Origin: Candidatus Latescibacterota bacterium
GTDB lineage: Bacteria; Latescibacterota; UBA2968; UBA8231
Reading direction: 5' to 3'
Assembly: GCA_965205655.1 (NCBI GenBank)
Contig: CBDBIJ010000022.1
Span: forward strand, 21,758 to 85,757
DNA: 64,000 nucleotides
Shown here: in pieces, positions 27,614-49,421 of the stretch
Position numbering within the stretch: position 1 is the stretch's first letter
Layout of the letters: every line of letters begins with the position of its first letter
The notes under the pieces: model-generated
The model's input: only the letters and a program-made list of their open reading frames with translations
Databases searched by the model: none
Told to the model about the DNA's origin: nothing
Translations under genes and position numbers: made by a program

Positions 27614-28744
27614 TCACATCGGATATTGACCGACCTGCTCGAAGAGCGTCTCGAAGCGGCCGACGTTATCCCAGTTGATCTCGACTCCCAACCCGGACCG
27701 GTCGGGCACGACGGTCTTGCCGCCCTCGATATCGAGCAGGCCGTCGACGAGTACGTCGTCGACGCTCAGCTCGTGCATCACCTGGTTGCCGTCGGTGACG
27801 TTCGGGATCGCCGCCAGGACCTGCAGCGCCGCCAGCGTCGAAATGCCCGTCTCGCCCAAACAGCCGTGGCGGTTGATGTTGAGATTGCCGGCCGCGGCAA
27901 CGGCGGCCGCCTTCTTTAGCGGCAGCAATCCACCCGTTTCGTGAAACCCGATGACGACAACGTCGCAGGCGTCGCGACGGACCGCTTCCAGTACGTCGGC
28001 CTCCGTGAACAATGCCTGATCGAGAGCGATCGGTACGGACACCTGGCGGCGCAGATCGGCCGAACCAGCAATGTCGAAGGCCGGTAAGGGCTGCTCGACC
28101 CAATCCAGATTGAACGGCTCCAGTTTGCGGATCATGGTGATGGCCGTGTGGCGATCCCAGGCCTCGTTGGGGTCGACGCGTAGACGGGGGCCGTCGCCCA
28201 CAGCCTCACGCACCGCCTGCACCGCCGCCAAATCGAATTCCGCTCCCTGGCCAATCTTCATGTAGAGGACATCGAAACCGCGCTTCACGTAGCTGCGGGC
28301 GTCAGCGGCCAGCGTCTGCGGATCGCCTCCCTGCAGGAAACCGAACCAGTGAACGGTCTCGTGAATCTTGCCGCCGAGCAGGTTGTAGACTGGCTGCCCG
28401 AGCGCCTTGCCGCAGATGTCCCACAAGGCCATTTCGATGCCGGCAAATGACTGATTGGCGAATCGGCGCTGGTTGCTCCAGGCACCGCTGTGATACAGTC
28501 GCGCCAGCAGGTATTCGACGCGAAACGGATCCTCCCGGAGCAGAAGGTGTTCGACCGAGCGGATTGTCGCCTCGGCTGCCACCGCCGAACGCGCGCCCAA
28601 AGCGTCGCCGTAGCCGACGACCCCGTCGTCGGTGTGCAGCTCTACCAGGACGGAGTTGAAGCCCTCGGGGGCGCCGATCGCCCAGTGATAGCGGCCGCGC
28701 AAGGGCACCGCGAGAGTGTGAGTACGGATCTCGGAAATTTTCAT
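27614..28744 (-). CDS. Mandelate racemase / muconate lactonizing enzyme family (enolase superfamily)
   Basis: MKISEIRTHTLAVPLRG...GYGDA.. capping domain. Barrel motifs ..LRVDPNEAWD.., ..WVEQPL.., ..ALDQ... I prefer the internal ATG 28744. Confidence 0.85.
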   Translation of the reverse strand: MKISEIRTHTLAVPLRGRYHWAIGAPEGFNSVLVELHTDDGVVGYGDALGARSAVAAEATIRSVEHLLLREDPFRVEYLLARLYHSGAWSNQRRFANQSFAGIEMALWDICGKALGQPVYNLLGGKIHETVHWFGFLQGGDPQTLAADARSYVKRGFDVLYMKIGQGAEFDLAAVQAVREAVGDGPRLRVDPNEAWDRHTAITMIRKLEPFNLDWVEQPLPAFDIAGSADLRRQVSVPIALDQALFTEADVLEAVRRDACDVVVIGFHETGGLLPLKKAAAVAAAGNLNINRHGCLGETGISTLAALQVLAAIPNVTDGNQVMHELSVDDVLVDGLLDIEGGKTVVPDRSGLGVEINWDNVGRFETLFEQVGQYPM

Positions 28745-28903
28745 ATCGGCCTCGAGGATGCTCGGGCACAAGAGGATGCACAATCAGATCCTGCCACGCC
28801 ACTGCAGGCAATCAGCTTCGGTTACCAGATGCTTGACGTCTCGTTTCGGCGCGGCGACGCGCGAAGCCACTCCGCACCAGCCGCCCATGCCTATCTTAGC
28901 CAC

Positions 28904-29956
28904 ATGCCCGCCTCCGAGCTCACACCCACCCAATACCGAGCTCTCCGCGAGCAGATTCAGGGCATCATTTCCGAGGGAGGGATCCACACCCGCCAGGCCG
29001 GCGAGTGGGAGAAAGTGGAGACCTACTGGCACATCGGCGACGCCTTAATTTCCCACATCGACGGCCAGCCCCGCGCCGAGTACGGCCGGCAAATAGTCGT
29101 TAACCTAAGTAAAGACATACAGTTACCGAAGTCTCTCTTGTGGCACATCCTGCGCTTCAGGCGCGTCTTAACAATTCTCTCCACGTGGAGAGAATTGAGC
29201 TGGTCCCACATCAGAGAGATCATCTACCGGCCCAGCCGCGAGGAACGTCGGTTTTATCTGAGCGCCGCCAATCGGGATCGCTGGAACGTGGCTCAGTTGC
29301 AGAAAGCCATCCGCGACGACCTCTACGGTGGCACCGTCACTCGACCCTTCGCCGTCCAACCCGAGCAGGACGCTCCCGCCGGCCGCCCCCTTCGCGCCCG
29401 CTTCGGTGAATTCCATGTCTATAAGATTGTACCCAGCGGCAACCCCGCATCTCACGAACTGTATCTCGACCTCGGTTTCCACATGACTGAGCACATCGAT
29501 CCCATCGGACTCAAAGACCCGGCTCCCGATCTCCTCGTCACCTCGAAGAAACGTCGCGACGGCGCCTACGCTTTCAATCCGTGCCCGCCCCAAACCCACC
29601 GCCATACTTACATCGGCTGGCCTCACCGCATCATCGACGGCGATACCCTCATCGGTGTCGCCGACTGCGGCCTCGGCCACCACACCTGGCCCCTCCGCTG
29701 GCGCCTGCGCGGCATCGACACCCCCGAACTCGGCACCTTCGCCGGCCGCAACGCGAAAGACTTCGTCGTCGACGTCCTGTCGCAGGTCTCATTCGTCGTC
29801 ATCTCGACCTTTAAGACAGACAACTACGGGAGATTTCTCGTTGATCTGAAGTACCTGCCGGGCGAGAGTGACCCAGTTGTCGTGCGCGATAATGGTACCT
29901 ACCTGAATCGGCAGCTGCTTATCCAACGCCTTGCGACTCGATGGCAGCCCGAGTAA
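28904..29956 (+). CDS. Fusion protein: DUF1016 N-terminal (YhcG-type) domain plus staphylococcal-nuclease (SNase/thermonuclease) domain
   Basis: N-terminal part: YRALREQIQGIISEGGIHTRQAGEWEKVETYWHIGDALISHI...RAEYGRQIVVNLSKDI...WSHIREII...EERRFYLSAANRDRWNVAQLQKAI (DUF1016_N pattern). C-terminal part: RIIDGDTL...WRLRGIDTPE...NYGRFLVDL...LNRQLLIQRLA (SNase pattern). The upstream 138 codons of track ORF 28490.. are antisense to the racemase gene and are rejected. Confidence 0.65.
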   Translation: MPASELTPTQYRALREQIQGIISEGGIHTRQAGEWEKVETYWHIGDALISHIDGQPRAEYGRQIVVNLSKDIQLPKSLLWHILRFRRVLTILSTWRELSWSHIREIIYRPSREERRFYLSAANRDRWNVAQLQKAIRDDLYGGTVTRPFAVQPEQDAPAGRPLRARFGEFHVYKIVPSGNPASHELYLDLGFHMTEHIDPIGLKDPAPDLLVTSKKRRDGAYAFNPCPPQTHRHTYIGWPHRIIDGDTLIGVADCGLGHHTWPLRWRLRGIDTPELGTFAGRNAKDFVVDVLSQVSFVVISTFKTDNYGRFLVDLKYLPGESDPVVVRDNGTYLNRQLLIQRLATRWQPE

Positions 29957-30107
29957 GGACCGGCCCTCTACTCTACTTCAAAGATCCGGATGGGCCTCCT
30001 CTGGGAGGTGGCACACAATCCGATTTTTGGGTGGGCCCCGCTCATTGAACTGCGACCAGGACAGCGCCACGGGGAGCATGGCCCGGCTGCGCTGCCAGAG
30101 TGCGAAT

Positions 30108-30202
30108 CTGCCTCGACACCGCTCTAACCTTTGATATACACTATTGAGATCACTCCTGATTCCACTGCTCGTCTAATTGGATACGCTTACGAACTTCGCC
30201 TA
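30108..30202. repeat. Direct-repeat copy A (~95 bp), a paralog of the 5' region of the GGCT-DUF1810 gene
   Basis: ctgcctcgacaccgctctaacctttgatatacactattgagatcactcctgattcc...ttggatacgcttacgaacttcgccta aligns with 37042-37146. It contains TTG-D-T-L-T-N-F-A-stop, against TTG-D-T-F-T-N-F-A-Y-G-S.. in copy B. Confidence 0.8.
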
Positions 30203-30349: not shown

Positions 30350-30976
30350 CTAGCGGTCGTCCGTCGGTGAGGTCTGTGCGGTCCCTTGCTCCGGGAGCCC
30401 AACCAGAACCATTGCGGAGTCTACCATCTCGTCCGCATCGACGGTATCGCGCAGCACTTTGGAGGTGCCGAGCAGGCCGGCGCTGAGAACGAAGAGCGAC
30501 TTCGCGAGTTGGTCTGCAGTGAGGTCGCTGCGGATCTGACCGGTTCGTTGGCCTTGCTCGATGGTCTCGATCAGCAGACTGGACGCGCGGGCGTGATGGC
30601 GCCTGAGCAGGGCGGAGACCTTTGCGTCGTGGGCACCGAGCTCGACGACGGCGTTCATCGCCATGCAGCCCCGCTGAACCGGCTGATCGCAGCACAACGC
30701 CGCGGCGCCTTGCAGCCAGGCGCGCAGACCATCGACCGGGGATGTTGCCTCGGACAGAATGCCGTGCATCCTCTGATAGGCGCGGTCGAGGTAGCGAGTC
30801 AGCGATTTCATGAACAGATCGTGCTTGTCCTCGAAAGCTTTGTAGATGCTGCCCTTGTGCAGCCCGGTGGCCTCCATGAGGTCGGTCATGGAGGTCGACT
30901 CGTAGCCCTTCGTCCAGAACGTGCCCATAGCGGCGTCCAGGGCTTCATCCATGTCGAATTCGCGTGGTCTTGCCAT
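30350..30976 (-). CDS. TetR/AcrR family transcriptional regulator
   Basis: MARPREFDMDEALDAAMGTFWTKGYESTSMTDLMEATGLHKGSIYKAFEDKHDLF is a TetR HTH. AGAGGAG RBS upstream of ATG 30976. Confidence 0.88.
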   Translation of the reverse strand: MARPREFDMDEALDAAMGTFWTKGYESTSMTDLMEATGLHKGSIYKAFEDKHDLFMKSLTRYLDRAYQRMHGILSEATSPVDGLRAWLQGAAALCCDQPVQRGCMAMNAVVELGAHDAKVSALLRRHHARASSLLIETIEQGQRTGQIRSDLTADQLAKSLFVLSAGLLGTSKVLRDTVDADEMVDSAMVLVGLPEQGTAQTSPTDDR

Positions 30977-31282
30977 GAGAACTCCTCTTACAATGTACTC
31001 ATTCGGGCGCTCAAAAGAACTGGACGTACTCCACCTGCAGATAGTCATCACGCCTCACCGCAGACAGCGGATCGCCCGCGTCGACGTTGCTGAAGAAGCG
31101 CGCTTCGAGGCGGACCTCGCCGGAGCTCCGCCAGCGGCGGTTCGCCTCCAAAGAAGCAAAGCGCGACCCATTGTCGAGGTCGATCGCAGTGAATGCGAGC
31201 ACATCCGTGTCCTGCGCATCGTTGAAGGTGAGGCGTCCGCCCACAGCGATGTCGTTGTCGGAAGCGCTTTGTCCCGATCTTA

Positions 31283-32674
31283 GTTGAAACAGCACAGGCT
31301 CCAATCGTTACGTTTTGATACGAGAAGCCCGTTGGAAGAAGTCTCGCATCGGTAACAAAAGGAGCCTGCAATGAGCAAGCTGGTAGCACGGAAGAAGGGC
31401 GTCAAACGAACGGTGAGCATCGGCAAGGTAGCACCCGAGACTGCAGAGCAAGTAGAGGACCTGGATGGCCGGATCGAGGCGATCCAATGGCTGATTCCCT
31501 TGGGGCTGCAGGCGGTCGCGGAGGAGCTGCAAAGAGCGGTCGTTGAGTTGGCTGGGTCGCGGTATCAGCGCAAGGGGTCGGATCAGCCGTTACGCCGCTG
31601 GGGGTCTCAGCTCGGGTCGGTGTACCTGGCCGACCAGAAACTACCCGTCGATGTGCCGCGGGTGCGCAACGTGGCCAACCATACCGAGGTCCCGCTGGAT
31701 GTTTACCAGGCACTGCAGACGCCTCGACAGATGGACGAAGGTCTGCTGTTGCGGATGCTGAAGGGCATCGCCACGCGCAACTACGAGGCCTGCGCTGAGG
31801 CCGTACCCGAGGCCTTTGGTCTGTCATCCTCATCGGTGTCCTGTCGTTACGTGAAAGGCACGGCTCGAAAGCTGGCTGAATTCCAGGAGCGATCCCTGGA
31901 AGGATATGATCTGGTGGCGCTATTCCTCGACGGCAAGAGCTTCGCGGACGAGGAGATCATCATCGCCCTGGGCGTCACCCTCGACGGACAGAAGATTCCT
32001 CTTGGCTTCGTGCAGGCGGCCACGGAAAACGAGCGCGTCTGCCGTCGCTTCCTGTCCGATCTGGTCGAACGCGGTATGCAGTACGAAGCCGGACTGTTGG
32101 TCGTCATCGACGGCGCCAAGGGGCTTTACAAGGCGGTGATGTCGGTGCTCAAAGGACATGCCTGCGTGCAGCGCTGCCAGTATCACAAGCGCCAGAACGT
32201 CGTGTCGTATCTGTCCAAAAGCGAGCAGTCCGGTATGGGTCGCAAGATGGAGGCGGCCTACGGCAAACCGAGATACGAGGCGGCCAAGGCGGCACTGGAC
32301 GCGCTCAAACCGGGCTTGAAGTTGATGAATCAGTCCGCCCTACACAGCCTCGAGGAAGGCATGGAAGAGACCCTCACACTCCATCGGTTGGGACTGACGC
32401 CGATGCTCAAGGATTCCTTCCGCACCACCAACTGCATCGAGAACGTCAACAGTCTCCTGGAGCAGCTCACACACAACGTGCGACGCTGGACCAACTCATC
32501 ACAGCGTCACCGTTGGGTAGCCACGGCACTGCTCGACATCGAACCACGTCTGCGCAGGGTCAAGGGCTATCGCCATCTGCCGATGCTCCGGCAAGCCATA
32601 CAAGCCGAACTCGGCATCAAACAGCTCGCGGTGATGGGCTGACACACTCACCCGAGCCTGTGATTTGTTTCAAC
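31283..32674 (+). mobile_element. IS256-family (Mutator-type) insertion sequence, apparently intact, with no recognisable target duplication
   Basis: Terminal inverted repeats GTTGAAACAGCACAGGCTC (31283->) versus rc GTTGAAACAAATCACAGGCTC (<-32674). 1392 bp. The flanking 8-9 nt (ccgatctta / tgaaactgg) are unrelated. Confidence 0.8.
31371..32642 (+). CDS. IS256-family (Mutator) transposase, 423 aa
   Basis: Typical pattern: ..LFLDGKSF..EIIIALGVTLDGQKIPLGF...ERVCRRFLSDLVERGM...VVIDGAKGL..A......VQRCQYHKRQNV... AAGGAG RBS. Confidence 0.88.
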   Translation: MSKLVARKKGVKRTVSIGKVAPETAEQVEDLDGRIEAIQWLIPLGLQAVAEELQRAVVELAGSRYQRKGSDQPLRRWGSQLGSVYLADQKLPVDVPRVRNVANHTEVPLDVYQALQTPRQMDEGLLLRMLKGIATRNYEACAEAVPEAFGLSSSSVSCRYVKGTARKLAEFQERSLEGYDLVALFLDGKSFADEEIIIALGVTLDGQKIPLGFVQAATENERVCRRFLSDLVERGMQYEAGLLVVIDGAKGLYKAVMSVLKGHACVQRCQYHKRQNVVSYLSKSEQSGMGRKMEAAYGKPRYEAAKAALDALKPGLKLMNQSALHSLEEGMEETLTLHRLGLTPMLKDSFRTTNCIENVNSLLEQLTHNVRRWTNSSQRHRWVATALLDIEPRLRRVKGYRHLPMLRQAIQAELGIKQLAVMG

Positions 32675-33655
32675 TGAAACTGGGCCTTGACCGTCGGAAG
32701 CGGGTGTCATCGGGGCGTCGCGGTCGTCGTACTGAACCTCGGCGACGATACCCAGATCTGCGGCCGTGGAAAGAATGCCGACGAGGGTGTACTCGGCGCC
32801 GGCGACAGCAGCGCTGGAGCGTCCGTCGATGCCATCGCGATGCACAGCTTCCAGCTTGGCGAGCCAGTCGCCGCGGGTCAGCTGCAGATCCAGACTCGTC
32901 TGGTGTAGCAGATCGTAGTGCGGGATCAGCCTCGGTTCCGCGGCACCGTCGTTGGCTGCCAGGCGCGGTTCCCGCGACGTGCCGTAGAAGTGACCGATGC
33001 CGATGTCGTAGTCGCCGATGATATGACTCCAGCGCGCGGCTGCGTCCGGGTGCCAGCGCTCGAGGTCGGACCCGTACCGGGAGCCGGCGATGGGAACTGG
33101 AGGACGCAGACGACCGTCGCGGCCTGCGAACGTGCGTTCGCGAAACCCTGACATGACGAAGAGATCGAGTGTGCCCCAATCGCGCAGCAGAGTCAGCTGC
33201 AGCATGGGCTGGCCGAGCTTGTCCTCCGTATCGGAGTTTTCCACGAGGTCGGTCTGGTTCACGACATCGACGAGATGGACGGATTCGGCAACCCCCCAGA
33301 AAACCTTGCGCACGCCGACATAGAGATCGGCGCTGTCGAAGGAGCGGCGCCAGTAGAGCTCGCGCAGGTCGACGTGGGTGCGGTCCTCGTCCTCTAGGTC
33401 CCAGCGCCCAAAGGGGACGACGACAAACGTTCGGCCCCGTCAGCCCAATCGTGGTAAAACTCGGGCTCGACAGCGACGGAAAGTCCGGCGTCCTGCTGGG
33501 GCACGTCGAGGGCGTCGTTGGGAAAGAGCCGGCTTTCGAAGGCGACCTCTCCAAAGAGTTCGGCCGCAGGCGCCGCTCGACTGGCGATGATCACGACGAC
33601 GAAGACGAGTGCTACGAAAGATGTGCGCACCGACATGTCACCCTGCCCTCGCCCG

Positions 33656-34526
33656 TCAACGCGCGCGGGCCAGGCTGTTGCGGTTGAAGTCCTTGTCGTC
33701 AAAGCCATTGGCGAAAACGAACTCCTCCCAGTTGAGATCCGTCTCCTTGCCGGTCTTGTGATTCACCATCATCCAGCGGCTGGCACGCCAGTACTGATCC
33801 AGGTACTGGTTGTAGTCGGCGACGGTGAGCGTCTTCATCAGCGACCCGCGCCGATCGTAGAACTCGACCTTCCAAACGCGGTATTCATTGGTATCGAGCC
33901 AGGCCACCTGGCGGGAGTATCCGGACTTCGGGTCCACCGGGTCGCGCTCGACGACAAAGTGGTTGCGGTCTTCGAAGGCCTCTTCGCCGATGTAGCGGTA
34001 GGTGTACTTCTCTACCTCCTGCGAAGAGATATCCTCGTAGGCGAACTCGCTGCCCATGAAGGGGCCGGACTTGTTGTTGGAGGCGATGCGCTTCACCCGC
34101 TTGAGCGCCGGCAGATAGAGCCACTGGTCGTCGGACCCTGTCTTGTGGGTGAAGGAGAGAAAGGCCGTGCCCTTCACGTCGCCGGGATTCTCGAAAATAA
34201 ATGAGGGACCTGTCGCCGTCGTCGGCCTGCTCGAGGGTGCGCACCCGCATGCGGCGTTCGGAGGTCTCCCCGTGCTTGTTGCGCAGGATCATGGTAATGC
34301 TCGCCTTGAGGTCGCCGAAGCCGGTGTCGCGACGATCGGCTTCCACAGCGATCTCGAGACCGCGGGCAGCGGCCTCTTCCGCCCCTTCCTGAGCGGTGAG
34401 CGCGACAGGATCGAGTGCGGCAGTCACGATCAAGGCGAGGCCGGAAGCGCGCAGGACTCCCGCCGAAGCGAGGAGTGCGGGAATTCGAGCGCAATTCATG
34501 CGAACTAGGTCATACAGGTTCATCAT
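33656..34526 (-). pseudogene. LolA-like 'outer membrane lipoprotein-sorting protein', frameshifted
   Basis: N-terminal half (frame of ORF 33885..34661 from MMNLYDLV.., AAGGAG RBS) reads ...DGDRSLIYF. The C-terminal half is ORF 33656..34177 with its upstream extension ENPGDVKGTAFLSFTHKTGSDDQWLYLPALKRVKRI... The switch is at the A4 run 34194-34197 (A3 restores ..SLIYFENPGDVKG..). Confidence 0.7.
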
Positions 34527-34545
34527 GCTCTCCTTGGTTTTTTGA

Positions 34546-36909
34546 TTAACTGGCCGGGGCGACATCGGGCGCTCCGGCGAGTGGTGACGCTTCCCTTCCG
34601 GTTGACTTCTTGCTATCGAGTTTGATGAGCAGCGCCGGCAGCAGCAGAAAGTCGGCGACAAGCGCCATGCCTATGGCGATGGCAGTGAGCAGAGCCATGA
34701 GGGAGTTCAGGGCGAAGTCGGACCTCGCGAGCACACTGAAGCCGGCAATGAGGATCAGGGAGGTGACGACGATCGCCTAACCCACATTGTGAAATGCGTA
34801 GCGTACGGCATCGGGCGCGTCCAGGTTCTGCTCTCTGCGGGCGCGCTTGTACTTCGTGAGGAAGTGGATCGTGTCGTCGACGACGATTCCGAGAGTCATG
34901 CCGCTCACCATGGATACGGCCATGTTGACTTCGCCTACGAATAGACCCCAGGCACCGAAGGCGAGGCCGGCGGGTAGCAGATTCGGCACCAGCGAAATGC
35001 CCCCGAGCTTGGAGCTCTTGAGCACACCTACGAGGATTGCCGAGATCAACACGACAGCGAGGAAGGTGCCCACGAGCATCGAGCGGATGTTGCGATCTGA
35101 AATGTAGGCGAACATGATCGCCGGACCGATGCCGGCAGTGGCAAGCTTCGGCGTGTTGTCGCGCAGCCAGCCTTCGCCGCGCTGGGCGATCTCGCGCAGG
35201 CGGCGGGAGTCGAGGTTGTCGAGGGTGGCGACGATCTGGGTGCTCGACTTGTCGATGTTGAGCTGGTTGTTGAGGTCGAGTCCGTAGGGTAGGGAGAGCT
35301 CGTAAAGCAGCAGGTACTGGGCGGCGAGCTCGCGATCCTCCGGCAGCCGGTAGTAGTCGTTGTCGTCAGCGTGGAGATTTCTGTTCAGGCGCTTGAAGGT
35401 ATCGGTGATGGTGTTGACGTGGCGAACCTCCGGCTGGGCCCGCAGCCAGTCGACGAAGCCGCCGACCTGCGCTAGGAAGGCGGGATCGCTGACCCCGTTG
35501 CTGGAACCGGAATCCAGGGAGAATTGCAACTGATAGGATCCGGTGAGACGATCTGTGGTGACGGTCACGTCGGAGCGAAAAGTCGTGGTCTCGTCGAAGT
35601 AGGCGACGAAATCGTCGTTGAGATCGTTGGACGGGATAAAGGCGAGCAGCAGGATGGCAAACGCCGAAAAGCCGACGAGGATGGGGCGGTTGCGCTGCAC
35701 CACCCAGTCTCCGAGTCGGTCCATGGCCTTGCCGATCAGGGTCTGACCTTGCCGCGACTTCACCGGGAAAATGGCAATGAAGGCGGGCAGGAAGCCGACG
35801 GAATAGAAGAAGGCGACGATCATACCTACTGCGGTGATATTGCCGAGGTCACCGAATGGCGGCGAGTCGGAGAAGTTCAGCGACAGAAAGCCGATAGCCG
35901 TGGTCACACTGGTGAGGAACACCGGCGACATGTTGAGGCGCAGACTTTCGACCAGGGCATCGCGACGGCCTACGCCTCTGCGCATGGCGCTGAGCAAACT
36001 CACGAGAATGTGGATGGAGTCGGCCACGGCGATGGTCATGATGATCGTGGGCGCTGCCGAGGACGGCGGTGTCAGCTCGATGCCTACCCAGCCGGCCAGC
36101 CCCATGGCGGTCATCAAGGAAAGAAGGATAACGAGCACCGTGCCGATGGTGGCGGTGATCGAGCGCAACAGGAGAAAGGCGACGATGACGATGATGAGGT
36201 ACATAGCCGGCACCATCGTCTCCATGTCCTTCAAGCTCATCTCCTGAAAGGCGTTGTTGAGCATGACCATACCGGTGAGGTGGACGTCCACGCCGTAGTC
36301 CGCCTCGAGTCGGGCGGCGAGCTCGCGGGCGGCGGCCACGGCCTGGGGCGTCTCGTCCATCGTCTTTTGCGGCATCTGAAAAGTGACGTTGACGCCGGTC
36401 GTGTGCCCCTCGTGGGCGACGAGAAAGTCACGCAGAGCCGGCTCCTTCGTGGCGATCTCGGCGACTTCGCCGAGCCTTTCCGGGGTGAAATCGAGACCCC
36501 CTTCCACAAGATCGGCGACGATAAGGTCGTCCTCGGTGGCGGTGGTGTGCTGGTGGTTGGTGATGGAGTCGACGCGCAGGACGTAGGGCAGCTGCCAGGC
36601 TTCGATCGTAAAAAACTCGACGGCGTCGAGGACCTGGGGAGTGAAGACGGCATCATCCCGGGGAGCGATGGCGAAGAGGATGTTGTCGATCTTCGTGTAG
36701 GTGCGTTGGAGCTTCTCGAAGGCGAGCAACTCGGGGTTGTCATCGGAGAAGAAGACGCGGTAGTCGTTGTTGAAGGCGAGACGGGCTCCGCCGGAGCCGG
36801 CGATGGCGGCGAAGGCGAGGGATCCGACCAGGACGAGCCAGCGCCAGCGGATGACCCATTCGGCGAAGGCGCCGGCGGAGCCGTTGCCGTTTTTGGGGGA
36901 GGTGGACAT
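34546..36909 (-). pseudogene. MMPL/RND-superfamily exporter with an in-frame TAG
   Basis: The 710-aa ORF 34777..36909 has the 12-TM MMPL/RND pattern. It continues in the same frame after TAG (34779-34777): ..RYAFHNVG*AIVVTSLILIAGFSVLARSDFALNSLMALLTAIAIGMALVADFLLLPALLIKL.. (ORF 34546..34734). These are the last TM helices of the family. Confidence 0.75.
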
Positions 36910-36936
36910 GAGGCGATTCTCCTTTTCTTGCGGTGG

Positions 36937-37030
36937 ATTAGGAACCGATCGGTCAACTAATGGGCAAAACGATACCCGGCCTTTTTAGCCGGGTGTCGAT
37001 GAATATAGGAATTAGGAACCGATCGGTCAA
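36937..37030 (-). promoter_or_regulatory. Promoter/operator region of the MMPL operon: near-consensus sigma70-type promoter, two identical 20-bp operator-like repeats, and a leader hairpin
   Basis: On the minus strand: TTGACC (37030-37025), 17 nt, TATATT (37007-37002). ATTAGGAACCGATCGGTCAA occurs twice (36937-36956 and 37011-37030), each with the palindrome ACCGATCGGT. The distal copy covers the -35 and spacer; the proximal copy lies between the predicted start site and the AAGGAG RBS. Hairpin ACCCGGC-n7-GCCGGGT at 36974-36994. Confidence 0.55.
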
Positions 37031-37041
37031 GAACCGCGCCT

Positions 37042-37146
37042 CCGCCTCGACACCACTCTAATCCTTGATATACACTATCGATACACTCTACCGAGATCAC
37101 CCCTGATTCCAGGGCCCGAGTTGGATACGTTCACGAACTTCGCCTA
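37042..37146. repeat. Direct-repeat copy B (~105 bp): upstream region plus first 8-9 codons of the GGCT-DUF1810 gene
   Basis: Aligns with 30108-30202 at roughly 85% identity by eye. It has a 12-13-bp extra segment (cgatacactctac) relative to copy A. Confidence 0.8.
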
Positions 37147-38074
37147 CGGCTCCAACATGTCGGCAGCGCGATTGCGGCAGCGCGCGCCGTCCGCACGTTT
37201 TCGCGACATCGGTCGGCTCGAGGGTCACACGCTTCGTTGGCACAAGCGCGGCCGCGACGGCTCCGGGAAATGCGATGCGGAAGCCACCGGGATGGATTTA
37301 GACGTAGTCTGGGGAGTCCTGTTCGAGATCGACCGCTCTGAGAAGCCTCGGCTCGACGAGGCCGAAGGGCTCCATCATGGTTATGACGAGAAGGAAGTTG
37401 AGATCGCTACCGTCCAGGGGACGGTCAAGGCCCTGATGTATTGCGCCACCGACATTGCGCCTGCGCTCAGTCCTTATCACTGGTACAAGGCTTTCGTCGT
37501 TGCCGGCGCCAGACAGCACGGCCTACCCGAACCCTATGTCCGCGACCTCGAGCAGGTGGAGTCTGTCGGCGACCCTGACGCGAACCGTGCAGCCATCAAT
37601 TCCGAAATCGATCGCGGTGAGCCCTGCACGAACCGCATTGAGTTGGATGATCCGTTTGATCTGAATCGCTTCACGAGCGCCCAGCACGGTGTCTATGACC
37701 GTGCGCTCGCAGAATTGAGAGACGGCCGCAAGCGGACGCACTGGATGTGGTTCATCTTCCCGCAACTCGATGGATTGGGACACAGCACAACGGCGAAGCA
37801 TTACTCCATAAAGAGTATCGAGGAAGCTACACAGTATCTGAATCATCCGGTCCTTGGACGAAGGCTGCTGGAATGTACCCAGGCAGTTTGTACTATTGTG
37901 GGACGATCAGTCTCAGAGATCTTCGGCTACCCGGATGACCTCAAGTTCAAGTCTTCGATGACACTGTTCTCATGTTTTGCGGATCCAGACTCAATGTTTG
38001 ACCAGGCCCTCGATAAGTACTTTCATGGAAAGCAGGATGACGTGACACTCCAGCTACTGGAAAAGAGGAGATGA
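37121..38074 (+). CDS. Fusion protein: gamma-glutamylcyclotransferase-like (AIG2/GGCT) domain plus DUF1810 domain
   Basis: N-terminal FAYGSNMSAARLRQRAP...WGVLFEI...EG....Y is a GGCT-like pattern. C-terminal LNRFTSAQHGVYDRALAELRDGRKRTHWMWFIFPQLDGLGHSTTAKHYSIKSIEEATQYLNHPVLGRRL...DDLKFKSSMTLF is the DUF1810 pattern. TTG start. Confidence 0.7.
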   Translation: MDTFTNFAYGSNMSAARLRQRAPSARFRDIGRLEGHTLRWHKRGRDGSGKCDAEATGMDLDVVWGVLFEIDRSEKPRLDEAEGLHHGYDEKEVEIATVQGTVKALMYCATDIAPALSPYHWYKAFVVAGARQHGLPEPYVRDLEQVESVGDPDANRAAINSEIDRGEPCTNRIELDDPFDLNRFTSAQHGVYDRALAELRDGRKRTHWMWFIFPQLDGLGHSTTAKHYSIKSIEEATQYLNHPVLGRRLLECTQAVCTIVGRSVSEIFGYPDDLKFKSSMTLFSCFADPDSMFDQALDKYFHGKQDDVTLQLLEKRR

Positions 38075-41973: not shown

Positions 41974-42206
41974 GATGGATCGATTGCACAATCTCGAGAG
42001 AGTTGTGAAGGCGCGGGGTCGTCTCAGAAGGTCACCCGCACCAGCTCGACGGGAGGCACCTGGCCCCCCGGGGCCCCGTGTCGGACAAGCACCCCGAGGG
42101 TCAGCAGCGTGGTTGGCGTGGGCAGCGAAACGTTCACCGTATTCGGCGACTGCTCCGCTCTGGACGTCGCGCGCTCCCCCCAGCCCCTCGTCGCCCGCTG
42201 CGTGAA

Positions 42207-43511: not shown

Positions 43512-43990
43512 ATGGACTGCCCCCGTTGCCTTGCAACTCTATAACGCTGCGCCTGGCCGCACAGGAAGATTTCGAAGGAATCGTTCGCAAAGTCGCCGAA
43601 ATCGGATACGTCGGAGTTGAGACTGCCGGTTTTCCGGGCACGACGGTCGAAGCACTGGGGATCACTCGCATAGTCGCCGGCCTGGGGCCCGATCAGTTTG
43701 CGTCGATCGAACAGATCAAGGAATCCTGTGACAAGTTCAACGAAGCGTCCGCGAACTCTGCAGAAAAGGGCTTTACGTTCGGAATCCACAATCACTGGTG
43801 GGAGTTTCAGAAAGTCGAGGGTGACCTCGTTTTGAGGCACATGCTCGACCATCTGAGTTCGGACATCTTCTTCGAGGTTGACGTTTACTGGGCGCAGACC
43901 GTTGGAGCCGATCCGGCCGGCGCCATTGCCGAGCTTGGCGGCCGAGAAGAGCTTCGCATTCCTGACCGACAAAGGCTACGCGCGCGGTAG
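43512..43990 (+). pseudogene. Degraded sugar-phosphate isomerase/epimerase (xylose-isomerase-like TIM barrel) remnant
   Basis: AAGGAG then ATG 43512. Family-like segments sit in different frames: M-D-C-P | VALQLY | TLRLAAQEDFEGIVRKVAEIGYVGVETAGF... and ...FGIHNHWWEF...FEVDVYW... Frame changes occur at the C5 run 43520-43524 and at AA 43543-44. It appears to lack an internal segment and the C-terminal ~70 aa expected for the family; the next gene starts 22 nt later. Confidence 0.5.
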
Positions 43991-48278: not shown

Positions 48279-49421
48279 TCAGCTGGGGTTCCAGACCCTC
48301 TCGAATAGATTCAGCCAGTTCCCGCCGAGCAGCTTGACCATATCCTCCGCCCCGTACCCCCGCTTCATCAGCGCATCGGCCAGGTTCGGAAACTCCGCCG
48401 GACTGTCGATCCCCTTCGGTTGAAAACTGAGCTCGGTGTAACGCACCGTCGGGTCGGCGAATGTCGATGGGTACTTCGTTCCCTGCTGGGATGTGATATA
48501 GTGCCAGAACTCAAGCGGTTGATCGTGCGTCGAATCGGTGCCGATGGCCACGTGATCGATGCCGATCCGCTGCACCATGTCGTCGATGGCGTCGACGAAG
48601 TCCTCCACTGTCGAATCGAACCCTTTGGGCAGAAAGCTGGCGAATGACGTCGCTCCCACGAGGCCGCCTTTTTCGGCCACAAGCCTCAGCGCATCCTCTT
48701 CTTTGTTGCGCGGATGGTCGCAGAAGCTGCGCGCGTTGGCATGCGTAATGGCTACCGGCTGCTCCGACAGTTCGGTCGCATCCATCGTCGTCTTCGGGCC
48801 CACGTGCGACAGATCGATCACAATGCCCAGCTGATTCATCTCGCGCACTGCGTCGACGCCGAAGTTGGTCAGGCCGCAGTCGTTGCGCTCCCAGCAGCCG
48901 CTGCCGAGCAGGTTGCACTCGTGGTAGGTCAGCTGAATGACACGCACCCCTAGTGTGCTGTCGCAGAGATTACTTTAATAAGTTTGTAGGCCCTGAGGCT
49001 GCACGTTCTCTCTGGTAAGCCGACGGGCCAAACCGCTTTGAGGCTCGATACTAATGCAACAAATTTCCGCGACGCCACACTAGCGTGTGGAATATTCCCA
49101 GTCTATCGAGCTCGTTCTCTATCGGGAGGCGTTCTGAAAGCTGAGAACGATCCCGGTCTTGTCCGCCTGCTTCGCGGTCCGAATATCCGCCGTTTCCTTC
49201 ACCTGCAGTATGTCACCGCGTTGGCGAAAACGCCGCATCCACACCGACAGGTGTGCCATCGTCTGCACGAAATTCTCCCACGTCGCGACTGTGGCACTGA
49301 TGGCGGTGATGTTGCCGGCCCGCAACCGCTCGAACACGGCGTCGCTCTCCCAGTTGCTGACGCTCAGTCCATCGATGACGACTGCCTCGTCGTAGATCTT
49401 TCTCGCTTCACTCGGCATCAT
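48279..49421 (-). pseudogene. Membrane dipeptidase (peptidase M19), interrupted by a MITE and frameshifted
   Basis: N-terminus MMPSEARKIYDEAVVIDGL... (AAGGAG RBS) reaches ..SFQNAS. The frame changes at the G3 run 49124-49126 into PIENELDRLGIFHTL, which stops at the MITE. It resumes as GVRVIQLTYHECN...IDLSHVG...ITHANARSFCDHPRNK... Confidence 0.8.
48951..49082. mobile_element. 128-bp MITE with IS630-type ends, plus TA target duplications
   Basis: C-TA-[GTGTGCTGTCGCAGAGATTAC...CAAATTTCCGCGACGCCACAC]-TA-G. The first 15 nt are identical to the rc of the right end of the IS630 copy at 4766-4780. No ORF. Confidence 0.85.

Follow-up and report, generated by a model that had tools for sequence, protein, structure and literature searches.

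An IS256 insertion followed by point lesions in a pump, LolA-like carrier and outer-membrane barrel cassette of a Candidatus Latescibacterota bacterium

A four-gene cassette and its intact relatives

The window, i.e. the whole stretch of 64,000 nucleotides that was analysed, carries four minus-strand genes in series between positions 36909 and 30350, coding for an RND pump, a LolA_like protein, a beta-barrel outer-membrane protein (OMP) and a TetR-family regulator, with intergenic gaps of 19, 19 and 34 nt. These genes, coordinates and gaps had been proposed in an earlier note made from the letters of the DNA and are retained here, the pump, LolA_like and TetR families being now assigned by profile searches.

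34546..36909, minus strand: HAE3/MMPL-type RND pump of the inner membrane (787 codons; codon 711 is an in-frame TAG)
33656..34526, minus strand: periplasmic LolA_like / TP_0789-like protein (PF17131), frameshift-split, ~ 290 aa if intact
32693..33636, minus strand: 5' part of the OMP gene (signal peptide and barrel strands, by alignment to 397-aa orthologues), with a -1 frameshift
31011..31264, minus strand: 3' part of the OMP gene, ending in ..EYVQFF and a stop, and aligning to the last 83 aa of the orthologues
30350..30976, minus strand: intact TetR-family regulator, 208 aa (profile matches)

The MMPL profile PF03176 matches the pump in two stretches (E 1.8e-31, 109.7 bits, cut-off 20.5) and its orthologue in the related genome G008 at 136.7 bits. 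The best NCBIfam match of the pump is TIGR00921 (HAE3), but at 111 bits it lies below the curated cut-off of 351.9. The LolA_like protein matches PF17131 (E 2e-60, 204 bits, cut-off 30), and its G008 orthologue retrieves 3BK5 (E 2.4e-88) and 9TP6 (E 2.7e-36) from the PDB as well as 4Z48 and 3BUU; compared with DUF1329, the carrier displays a weak likeness to its C-terminal part only (E 8e-9).

The OMP gene spans 33636-31011 overall, for a product of ~ 397 aa when whole. The AF2 model of a close homologue (P0002; pLDDT 85, pTM 0.79) is a beta-barrel, with ~ 18 strands by our own count of the strand elements in this model. Its best PDB matches are OmpM1, AlgE, OccK and OmpF at a TM of about 0.55, the Foldseek probability being 1.00 for the AlgE, OccK and OmpF barrels. 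Indeed, a closed antiparallel barrel, a C-terminal aromatic residue (..VQFF) and a signal peptide (seen by eye only) are all found as in beta-barrel OMPs, and an inward L3-like loop is strongly conserved. The DUF1302 profile (PF06980) gave no match at E <= 1 to the intact G008 OMP and matched 0 of 51 close homologues at E <= 0.01. The same profile does match a 40%-identical paralogous clade, at 20-27 bits, and hhalign with a true DUF1302 returned an E of 0.16 across 26 columns at the W-G-E-S motif.

Intact and colinear four-gene cassettes are present in the genomes G008 and G013, and the window pieces map onto single genes whose products have 785, 292 and 397 aa, the LolA-like pieces aligning colinearly with the 292-aa orthologues. 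Hence the "halves" are single genes, and the possibility raised by the earlier note that they are normally separate is ruled out by these alignments. Further intact four-gene cassettes occur in L029 and in a Legionellaceae MAG (trio and TetR), and a deltaproteobacterial MAG holds the pump, LolA-like and OMP trio without TetR. In the 41 relatives searched, the LolA-like gene adjoins an OMP gene for 19 of 19 strong LolA-like matches, and the two genes are neighbours in about 31 of 41 genomes spread over many other phyla, which agrees with the recurrent module suggested beforehand. Within the family the cassette is found in 12 of 24 genomes; it is an accessory unit that is frequently missing.

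Upstream of the pump the following elements were found.

37002..37030, minus strand: operon promoter TTGACC-17-TATATT (10/12 in a consensus scan; also upstream of the G008 orthologue)
37011..37030, unstranded: operator-like 20-mer, copy 1 (perfect direct repeat D7), overlapping the -35 hexamer
36937..36956, unstranded: operator-like 20-mer, copy 2, directly 5' of the RBS

On the plus strand copy 1 reads ATTAGGAACCGATCGGTCAA, with a core palindrome ACCGATCGGT, and it is kept in G008 with one mismatch. TetR combines an N-terminal HTH (TetR_N, PF00440, E 6e-11) with a C-terminal ligand domain (TetR_C_13, PF16925, E 8e-15); it would bind both promoter 20-mers and let go when its ligand is present. 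A scan for a sigma70-like promoter serving TetR alone found none, and the phylum may use other promoter types; from the missing match, TetR probably depends on the operon promoter.

An imperfect direct repeat of ~ 100 bp also flanks the cassette on both sides (repeats D1, D2 and D5, 79-92% identical).

30102..30202, unstranded: left copy, a truncated remnant of the gene at 37121 (promoter and 5' end)
37036..37146, unstranded: right copy, extending into the start of the GGCT-like gene 37121-38074

Point lesions and the IS256-family element

The structural genes carry the following lesions.

34777..34779, minus strand: nonsense codon TAG from CAG (Gln) in the pump, where relatives have Q
34199..34201, minus strand: +1 frameshift in the LolA-like gene, ATT-T-ATT TTC versus intact ATT ATT TTC (..SLIIFENPGD..)
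33427..33428, minus strand: -1 frameshift in the OMP gene, one C lost from minus-strand gaacgCtttgtc (..AERFVVVPF..)
31265..32692, plus strand: IS256-family element of 1428 bp (transposase NF033543), inside the OMP gene
31257..31264, unstranded: target-site duplication GTCGGAAG, left copy, 8 bp
32693..32700, unstranded: target-site duplication GTCGGAAG, right copy, 8 bp

The TAG ahead of the last TM helices had been recognised earlier and is confirmed; as read from the sequence it drops the last two predicted helices, hence the complete 12-helix core is absent in the window pump, and the G008 orthologue is complete. The LolA-like +1 frameshift was found again with its base detail restated as AA>AAA on the plus strand, i.e. 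a TT>TTT slip within ATT ATT TTC. The OMP frameshift is also real, but its placement in a C-run was wrong as the single C is lost outside any homopolymer. Only TetR, with its 208-aa ORF, is undamaged, as first noted, and its sequence is the same in runs X1 and X3.

The IS256 insertion, likewise proposed before, is bounded by a clean duplication. Its termini form the imperfect inverted repeat I6 and its transposase ORF (31371-32642, 423 aa) is intact, with 216 bits against NF033543 for a cut-off of 150. Removal of the element in silico restores the OMP reading frame across the junction, and a contig of X4 displays the empty site, 31266 being joined straight to 32693. In the 4.0-Mb genome 31 full-length copies were counted; the transposase is intact in 25, and 18, this one included, have an 8-bp duplication. 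The copies differ through singleton indels, about 1 per 4 kb. Expansion of IS256-family elements, with 8-bp duplications, imperfect terminal repeats and gene disruption by many near-identical copies, is ordinary, and compared with ordinary IS256 insertional inactivation this element shows nothing unusual and is merely abundant.

Order of events among populations

The lesion sites were compared among populations using Logan contigs from other public runs of 2-7x depth (2-5x for the read-level check of the lesions), a level at which allele frequencies and mixed populations are invisible. The IS junction was found in X1, X2 and X3. X4, a ~ 95% identical population, lacks the IS (empty site) as well as every other lesion, and X2 and X3, ~ 99.8% identical populations, have the IS without the three point lesions. 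Run X1, which may be the source sample of the assembly and is hence partly non-independent, reproduces the three point lesions exactly and differs from the window by 3 bases and 2 indels in 20 kb. The TAG site reads CAG in X2, X3 and X4 and TAG in X1 and in X12, which belongs to another study. At the LolA frameshift site X2, X3 and X4 are one base shorter, and at the OMP frameshift site an extra base is present in X2, X3, X4 and X8 (whose contig covers this site only); X1 is the same as the window at both. All three point lesions are together only in the window and X1, and over the 4.3 kb compared they are the only differences from the window shared by X2 and X3. Thus, the point lesions are confined to one sub-lineage (window/X1), and their distribution establishes the order of events, the IS first and the point lesions later. 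The "four independent lesions" of the earlier note are all real and recent but have an unequal history, the IS being older and common to several strains.

That the genes are in fact intact, with both frameshifts and perhaps also the TAG introduced as consensus errors during long-read metagenome assembly, is very improbable. The resolution of 31 near-identical IS copies inside contigs suggests long reads, and the singleton indels between these copies, as well as the short A-run at one frameshift, would suit such errors. However, k-mer contigs of X1 show all three lesions exactly and X12 has the TAG, hence the lesions persist in this contig-based check at read level; moreover, the OMP deletion lies outside a homopolymer, a substitution to stop is an atypical consensus error and the IS junctions are seen in three runs.

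We consider the stepwise loss of a TetR-controlled three-part exporter a well-supported overall explanation. First, a copy of the IS256-family element landed in the OMP gene, in an ancestor shared by the window, X1, X2 and X3 populations; this took away the predicted outer-membrane exit and probably severed TetR from the operon promoter. The window/X1 sub-lineage then gained the pump CAG>TAG change, the LolA-like +1 frameshift and the -1 frameshift in the OMP stump, and X2 separately gained a 153-bp deletion of the last pump helix, the loss of this accessory cassette falling as a whole within an IS256 transposition burst. As gene decay this is commonplace; the staged course and the parallel hits are of mild interest, and the locus offers a well-resolved example of a widespread transport module that has decayed recently.

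The later hits may have been either neutral or favoured. The earlier note saw relaxed selection; the decay is indeed real and recent, but this is one reading only, and the pattern also fits a domino loss after OMP disruption, possibly with selection against the orphaned pump. Such selection is a tentative proposal, in which after loss of the OMP exit, and perhaps derepression through TetR cut-off, the remaining pump and carrier would have been harmful and their knock-outs favoured, possibly by loading hydrophobic substrate into the periplasm or through expression of a truncated barrel. On the window/X1 branch the 4.3 kb compared contain 3 changes, each a loss-of-function change in a different structural gene, and no silent one; the neutral expectation for 3 of 3 is about 0.001-0.015. 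Yet the sample is very small, and the enrichment statistics carry a bias since the cassette was picked for looking broken. X2 damaged the same pump independently, its own 153-bp deletion having removed TM12, and its three non-synonymous changes include A80D and S474R in the pump. TAG aside, the pump aligns without gaps to the G008 orthologue at 86% identity, so its inactivation is very recent, and the scan that found no TetR promoter of its own points the same way. Against this, X3 has the IS yet otherwise only synonymous or conservative changes, hence at the very least an incomplete system is tolerated; the third lesion sits in an already dead OMP gene and looks neutral; and the whole genome seems indel-prone, X3 differing from the window by 4 indels for 26 substitutions in 20 kb. 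If selection did act, the parallel pump knock-outs (TAG in one lineage, TM12 deletion and radical substitutions in another), together with a branch that carries loss-of-function changes alone, would indicate at the population level that pump, carrier and barrel make up a single obligate conduit which becomes toxic when incomplete.

Putative function and relation to known systems

RND pumps are outward, proton-driven transporters. In mycobacterial MmpL with LppX/LprG, and in LolCDE-LolA-LolB, an inner-membrane extractor passes lipidic cargo to a LolA-fold carrier towards the outer layer; both pathways differ from the cassette by other pumps or ATPases, by lipoprotein carriers or a LolB acceptor, and by having no barrel encoded alongside. 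By analogy with known systems, the HAE3/MMPL-type pump would be the proton-driven inner-membrane component for a hydrophobic or amphiphilic compound, the soluble LolA-fold protein would carry this substrate across the periplasm and the modelled ~ 18-strand barrel would release it at or beyond the outer membrane, presumably under the control of TetR.

No characterisation of this module subtype was found in the literature searched, and "functionally uncharacterised", as the earlier note put it, holds for the subtype; its general type has counterparts in the DUF1302/DUF1329/BNR/HAE3-RND systems. The module is a widespread, unnamed and compact relative of the DUF1302/DUF1329/RND (AmeABCD) exporters. 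AmeABCD of Castellaniella defragrans, a system associated with apolar hydrocarbons, likewise unites a ~ 787-aa HAE3 RND pump with its own OMP and a periplasmic protein of the LolA superfamily; mutants lacking it tolerate monoterpenes less well and accumulate more Nile Red (PMC6394551). However, it has four parts, AmeA being a 605-aa DUF1302 protein, AmeB a 451-aa DUF1329 protein and AmeC a BNR/COG4447 protein (PMC6394551), whereas the cassette has an OMP of ~ 397 aa without clear DUF1302 match, a PF17131 carrier of ~ 290 aa and no AmeC gene, and its TetR gene belongs to the unit. Between or beside the cassette genes no AmeC-like BNR/COG4447 gene was found in the window, G008, L020 or L022. A BNR/sortilin-like gene lies about 1.9 kb off in G008, on the opposite strand.

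The DUF1302/DUF1329/BNR/COG1033-RND cluster of Shewanella and Pseudomonas likewise joins an RND pump to a LolA/LolB-like protein and an OMP (10.1101/072470; 10.1101/2020.07.04.188060) but differs by other OMP and carrier families, often two loci, pleiotropic mutants and no linked TetR. HpnN, the hopanoid transporter (TIGR03480 / NF052374), shares the HAE3 branch and gives weak pump matches (E 3e-30 and 4e-15), with scores far below the curated cut-offs (105 bits for a cut-off of 752). HpnN is reported to function with neither a periplasmic protein nor an OMP of its own (PMC6394551).

The module could also serve uptake or envelope building (long-chain alkanes, insoluble substrates, envelope lipid export) instead of detoxifying efflux, a role that we judge unlikely and under which the loss would reflect a change of diet or envelope, not chemical stress. 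The outward direction of RND pumps argues against it, as do the local TetR of efflux-repressor type and the four loci checked (window, G008, Legionellaceae MAG and deltaproteobacterial MAG), where no biosynthetic gene is linked to the cassette; furthermore, AmeABCD, the one tested relative, acts as an exporter (PMC6394551). In its favour, Thalassolituus oleivorans has a fused MMPL-LolA-like protein and an adjacent unannotated porin (TOL_3187/TOL_3188) that respond to n-C28 by 42-fold induction or by expression on this substrate alone (PMC6304351). This pair resembles the cassette through its MMPL and LolA-like domains followed by a porin-like protein without recognised domain (PMC6304351) and differs by the pump-carrier fusion, TOL_3188 being a possible counterpart of the cassette OMP. 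Moreover, the DUF1302/DUF1329/BNR/RND genes form an RB-TnSeq cofitness cluster of unsettled function, for which "export of a cell wall component" was proposed (10.1101/072470). The OMP/LolA-like family is also found in Cycloclasticus and methanotroph genomes, and in one Pseudomonadales MAG the OMP gene, there without the pump, stands beside acyltransferase genes and an N-acyl-synthase-like gene.

The cassette and its lesions

In agreement with the earlier note, four minus-strand genes, for a pump, a LolA-like carrier, an OMP and a TetR regulator, lie at 30350-36909 with matching coordinates and intergenic gaps of 19, 19 and 34 nt. HMM assignment was obtained for the pump, whose top NCBIfam match is TIGR00921 (HAE3), under its cut-off, and for the LolA-like protein. 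No family was found for the OMP by Pfam and NCBIfam, using either the window pieces or the intact OMP of G008, the genome of a relative.

Genes of the cassette and its insertion
36909-34546, minus strand: MMPL/RND pump (PF03176, E 1.8e-31)
34526-33656, minus strand: LolA_like protein (PF17131, alias TP_0789-like; E 2e-60)
33636-31011, minus strand: OMP gene, no Pfam or NCBIfam match
31371-32642, plus strand: IS256-family transposase (NF033543, 216 bits)
30976-30350, minus strand: TetR regulator (TetR_N and TetR_C_13)

A promoter, TTGACC-17-TATATT, is kept in the window and in G008, as is a 20-mer, ATTAGGAACCGATCGGTCAA, with the palindrome ACCGATCGGT, a candidate TetR operator judging from sequence. 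The operon leader also holds, between two operator-like copies, a terminator-like hairpin (36974-36994) whose 8-pair stem leads into a T-rich tail. An ORF at 28490-29956 encodes a DUF1016 N-terminal domain (E 3e-19) and, after it, a staphylococcal-nuclease match too weak to pass the cut-off (E 0.003).

The four lesions previously described are all present in the window sequence. The pump reads ..FHNVG*AIVV.., with an in-frame TAG at 34777-34779 upstream of two hydrophobic helices, the LolA-like gene shifts frame at 'ctcattTattttcgag', and the OMP gene, itself also interrupted by the IS, shifts frame at 'gaacg^tttgtc'. The OMP frameshift had been attributed to a C-run, which proved incorrect as the absent base is a single isolated C. 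It can be ruled out that the halves are usually distinct genes, since the window pieces align end to end on single orthologous proteins. Indeed, the LolA-like pieces ..DGDRSLIY / ENPGDVKG.. are colinear with the orthologue ..GDKSLIIFENPGDVKG.., the OMP pieces around the frameshift, ..WADGAE / FVVVPFGRWD.., with ..SDGAQRIVVVPFMRWD.., and those on either side of the IS, ..DAPMTP / SDNDIAVGG.., with ..DAPLAPFSDNDVAVGG... The pump shares 86% identity with that of G008 in a gap-free alignment of 710 residues, G008 having a Gln at the position of the window TAG, and the closest LolA-like homologues in a search of 41 relatives (83-89% identity) sit in intact cassettes. The synteny search found such cassettes in G008, in the order pump (785 aa), LolA-like protein (292 aa), OMP (397 aa) and TetR (195 aa), and in a second relative, G013, with the same gene order.

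Comparison of the genomic copies, catalogued over contigs C6-C137, sets the bounds of the IS at 31265-32692 (1428 bp), and an 8-bp duplication, GTCGGAAG, flanks it in the OMP gene, which rejoins in frame once the element is taken out. The genome holds 31 full-length copies at ~ 99% identity, of which 18 show an 8-bp duplication and 25 an intact transposase, and there are about a dozen more of an ~ 82%-identical relative. On contig C18, two IS copies have exchanged flanks (TCCGTAA), pointing to an IS-mediated inversion or else a composite element.

Staged decay across populations

The lesions were inspected in public sequencing runs (labelled X), read as Logan contigs at 2-7x depth, in which the three point lesions were matched in run X1 and the TAG also in X12, which comes from yet another study. 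X1 shows no difference from the window over the cassette, and it is not merely a re-reading of the assembly, given that 3 bases and 2 indels differ in a 20-kb control stretch. Runs X2 and X3 come from other studies and match the window at ~ 99.8% identity, X4 at ~ 95%. At 34779, X2, X3 and X4 carry a G, giving a minus-strand CAG for Gln. With CAG there in near-identical strains and Gln in relatives, an alternative genetic code or TAG read-through is ruled out. Furthermore, the frame is restored by one extra base at 33427 in X2, X3, X4 and X8, and by one base less at 34199/34200 in X2, X3 and X4. At the OMP junctions, contigs of X1, X2 and X3 extend ~ 25 nt into the IS, and a 1748-nt contig of X4 joins 31266 straight to 32693, that is, an empty IS site.

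Over 32693-37000, the three lesions are the only differences common to X2 and X3 versus the window and X1, all remaining ones being private to X2 or to X3. In X2 alone, 153 bp of the pump gene are deleted in frame (34557-34709, 6-nt microhomology), taking away the last TM helix and the tail; its pump also carries A80D and S474R, and its OMP an R to C change; X6, from the same study as X2, is without the deletion. X3 has three synonymous and two conservative changes. From the distribution of lesions and IS sites over X1-X4, X8, X12 and the outgroups, the order of events is an intact cassette (X4 and all outgroups), then the IS only (X3), then the IS with secondary hits. Hence the IS came first and is common to several populations, and the point lesions are later and lineage-specific.

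Each of the branches concerned has 3-5 changes, too few to give dN/dS any power. Stop-creating changes make up ~ 2.5% of the possible substitutions in the cassette genes, and with indels set at 10-25% of mutations, the chance of three out of three disabling changes on a branch is ~ 0.001-0.015, for a locus that was chosen for looking broken and is read from contigs of low depth. In the 7.3 kb of flanks covered by both X2 and X3 there is one shared difference, a missense. This concentration of lesions favours more than passive drift. On the other side, X3 has four single-base indels of its own versus the window in the 20-kb control (at 43514, 43543, 46870 and 49123), so that weak purifying selection may act on the population as a whole. 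The earlier note had taken the decay as a sign of relaxed selection; the decay is real, but its staged pattern hints at selection against an orphaned pump rather than mere relaxation. An accessory operon was struck by an IS amid an IS burst and then fell apart. As gene decay this is ordinary, and part of its interest lies in the populations, which form a dated series from intact through IS only to IS with additional hits, some of them parallel ones in the pump. As a natural experiment, this series supports the view that the three proteins function only together.

In the same 20 kb, X1 has two indels (1 and 2 bases) versus the window, at 42064 and 53310. Several of the X1 and X3 indels fall within reading frames that are open in the window, and they are either strain-own frameshifts that are collecting or errors of low-depth contigs. 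At 48947-49126, X3 contigs skip 130 or 178 bases, and a MITE in a dipeptidase gene is missing there from them.

Likeness to known exporters

Among systems that have been studied, AmeABCD of Castellaniella defragrans comes closest. Its parts are a DUF1302 OMP, a DUF1329 LolA-superfamily protein, a BNR protein and an HAE3 pump, and without it the cells tolerate monoterpenes less well and accumulate more Nile Red (PMC6394551). In Shewanella and Pseudomonas, these four families show cofitness (10.1101/072470). Thalassolituus on n-C28 induces a fused MMPL-LolA-like protein together with a neighbouring domain-less porin (PMC6304351). The present module follows the same logic as AmeABCD but is smaller: its carrier matches just the C-terminal part of DUF1329 (E 8e-9), it has no BNR partner, and its OMP does not reach DUF1302, whereas a paralogous clade of the OMP does so weakly. 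Profile comparison with a true DUF1302 gave only a 26-column motif match (E 0.16), and the OMP is for that reason not assigned to DUF1302 here. On these grounds we read the module as a three-part variant of the AmeABCD kind, resembling exporters of hydrophobic compounds by analogy, and one that falls outside the Ame/DUF1302 families in their present definition. It can be described as a compact cousin of the DUF1302/DUF1329/RND exporters of hydrocarbons or lipids, which are themselves poorly understood.

Solved homologues of the LolA-like protein (3BK5, E 2.4e-88; 9TP6; 4Z48; 3BUU) have no assigned function. For the OMP, the AF2 model of P0002, a close homologue, is a barrel of ~ 18 strands (pLDDT 85, pTM 0.79), and the best solved structural matches, OmpM1, AlgE, OccK and OmpF, are generic barrels (TM ~ 0.55, 10% identity). 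An alignment of 51 sequences has 55 invariant columns, and one loop is rich in invariant polar residues. This most conserved segment, ..RKVFWGVTESxHLVDIINQTDLVEN.., is a long L3-like loop modelled with low confidence (P0002 residues ~ 116-147, window ~ 33210-33310; invariant W, G, E, H, N, Q, D, E and K), and may serve as a plug or docking site.

Distribution and accessory status

At least 7,320 protein clusters make up the OMP family, each with the label 'hypothetical' and no Pfam domain. The family is found in at least 596 species genomes of many phyla, with 45-60% identity between phyla. The LolA-like gene adjoins the OMP gene in all 19 cases among relatives and, by coordinates in 41 distant genomes of other phyla, in ~ 31, the two being unlinked in ~ 8. 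MMPL adjacency was examined in six loci; the trio of pump, carrier and OMP also occurs in a deltaproteobacterial MAG, and the trio with TetR in a Legionellaceae MAG. A literature search found no experimental study of, and no name for, the OMP family or module; its description as recurrent and functionally uncharacterised holds. The module merits an experimental look, and its function can be tested in cultured carriers, for instance Nisaea nitritireducens DSM 19540. In a Pseudomonadales MAG (locus L019, 7001-8212), an OMP homologue without adjacent pump or carrier neighbours a sigma54 two-component pair, a PF01553 acyltransferase, an Acetyltransf_5/FeeM-like gene and polysaccharide-export genes.

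The cassette is present in 12 of 24 family genomes and is accessory, since genomes with and without it are found within one genus. No second LolA_like gene was found in the genome assembly (4.0 Mb, 150 contigs, 84% complete). Imperfect direct repeats of ~ 100 bp (79-92% identical) flank the cassette at 30102-30202 and 37036-37146, the left one a remnant of the GGCT-like gene at 37121 that comprises its promoter and first codons, and this duplication suggests that the cassette arrived, was inserted or moved as a block. Two relatives may hold further decaying examples of the module: in G040 (C4:523193-524060) the OMP homologue matches in two pieces, and in G081 (C47:51917-52447) the LolA-like gene has an internal TAA.
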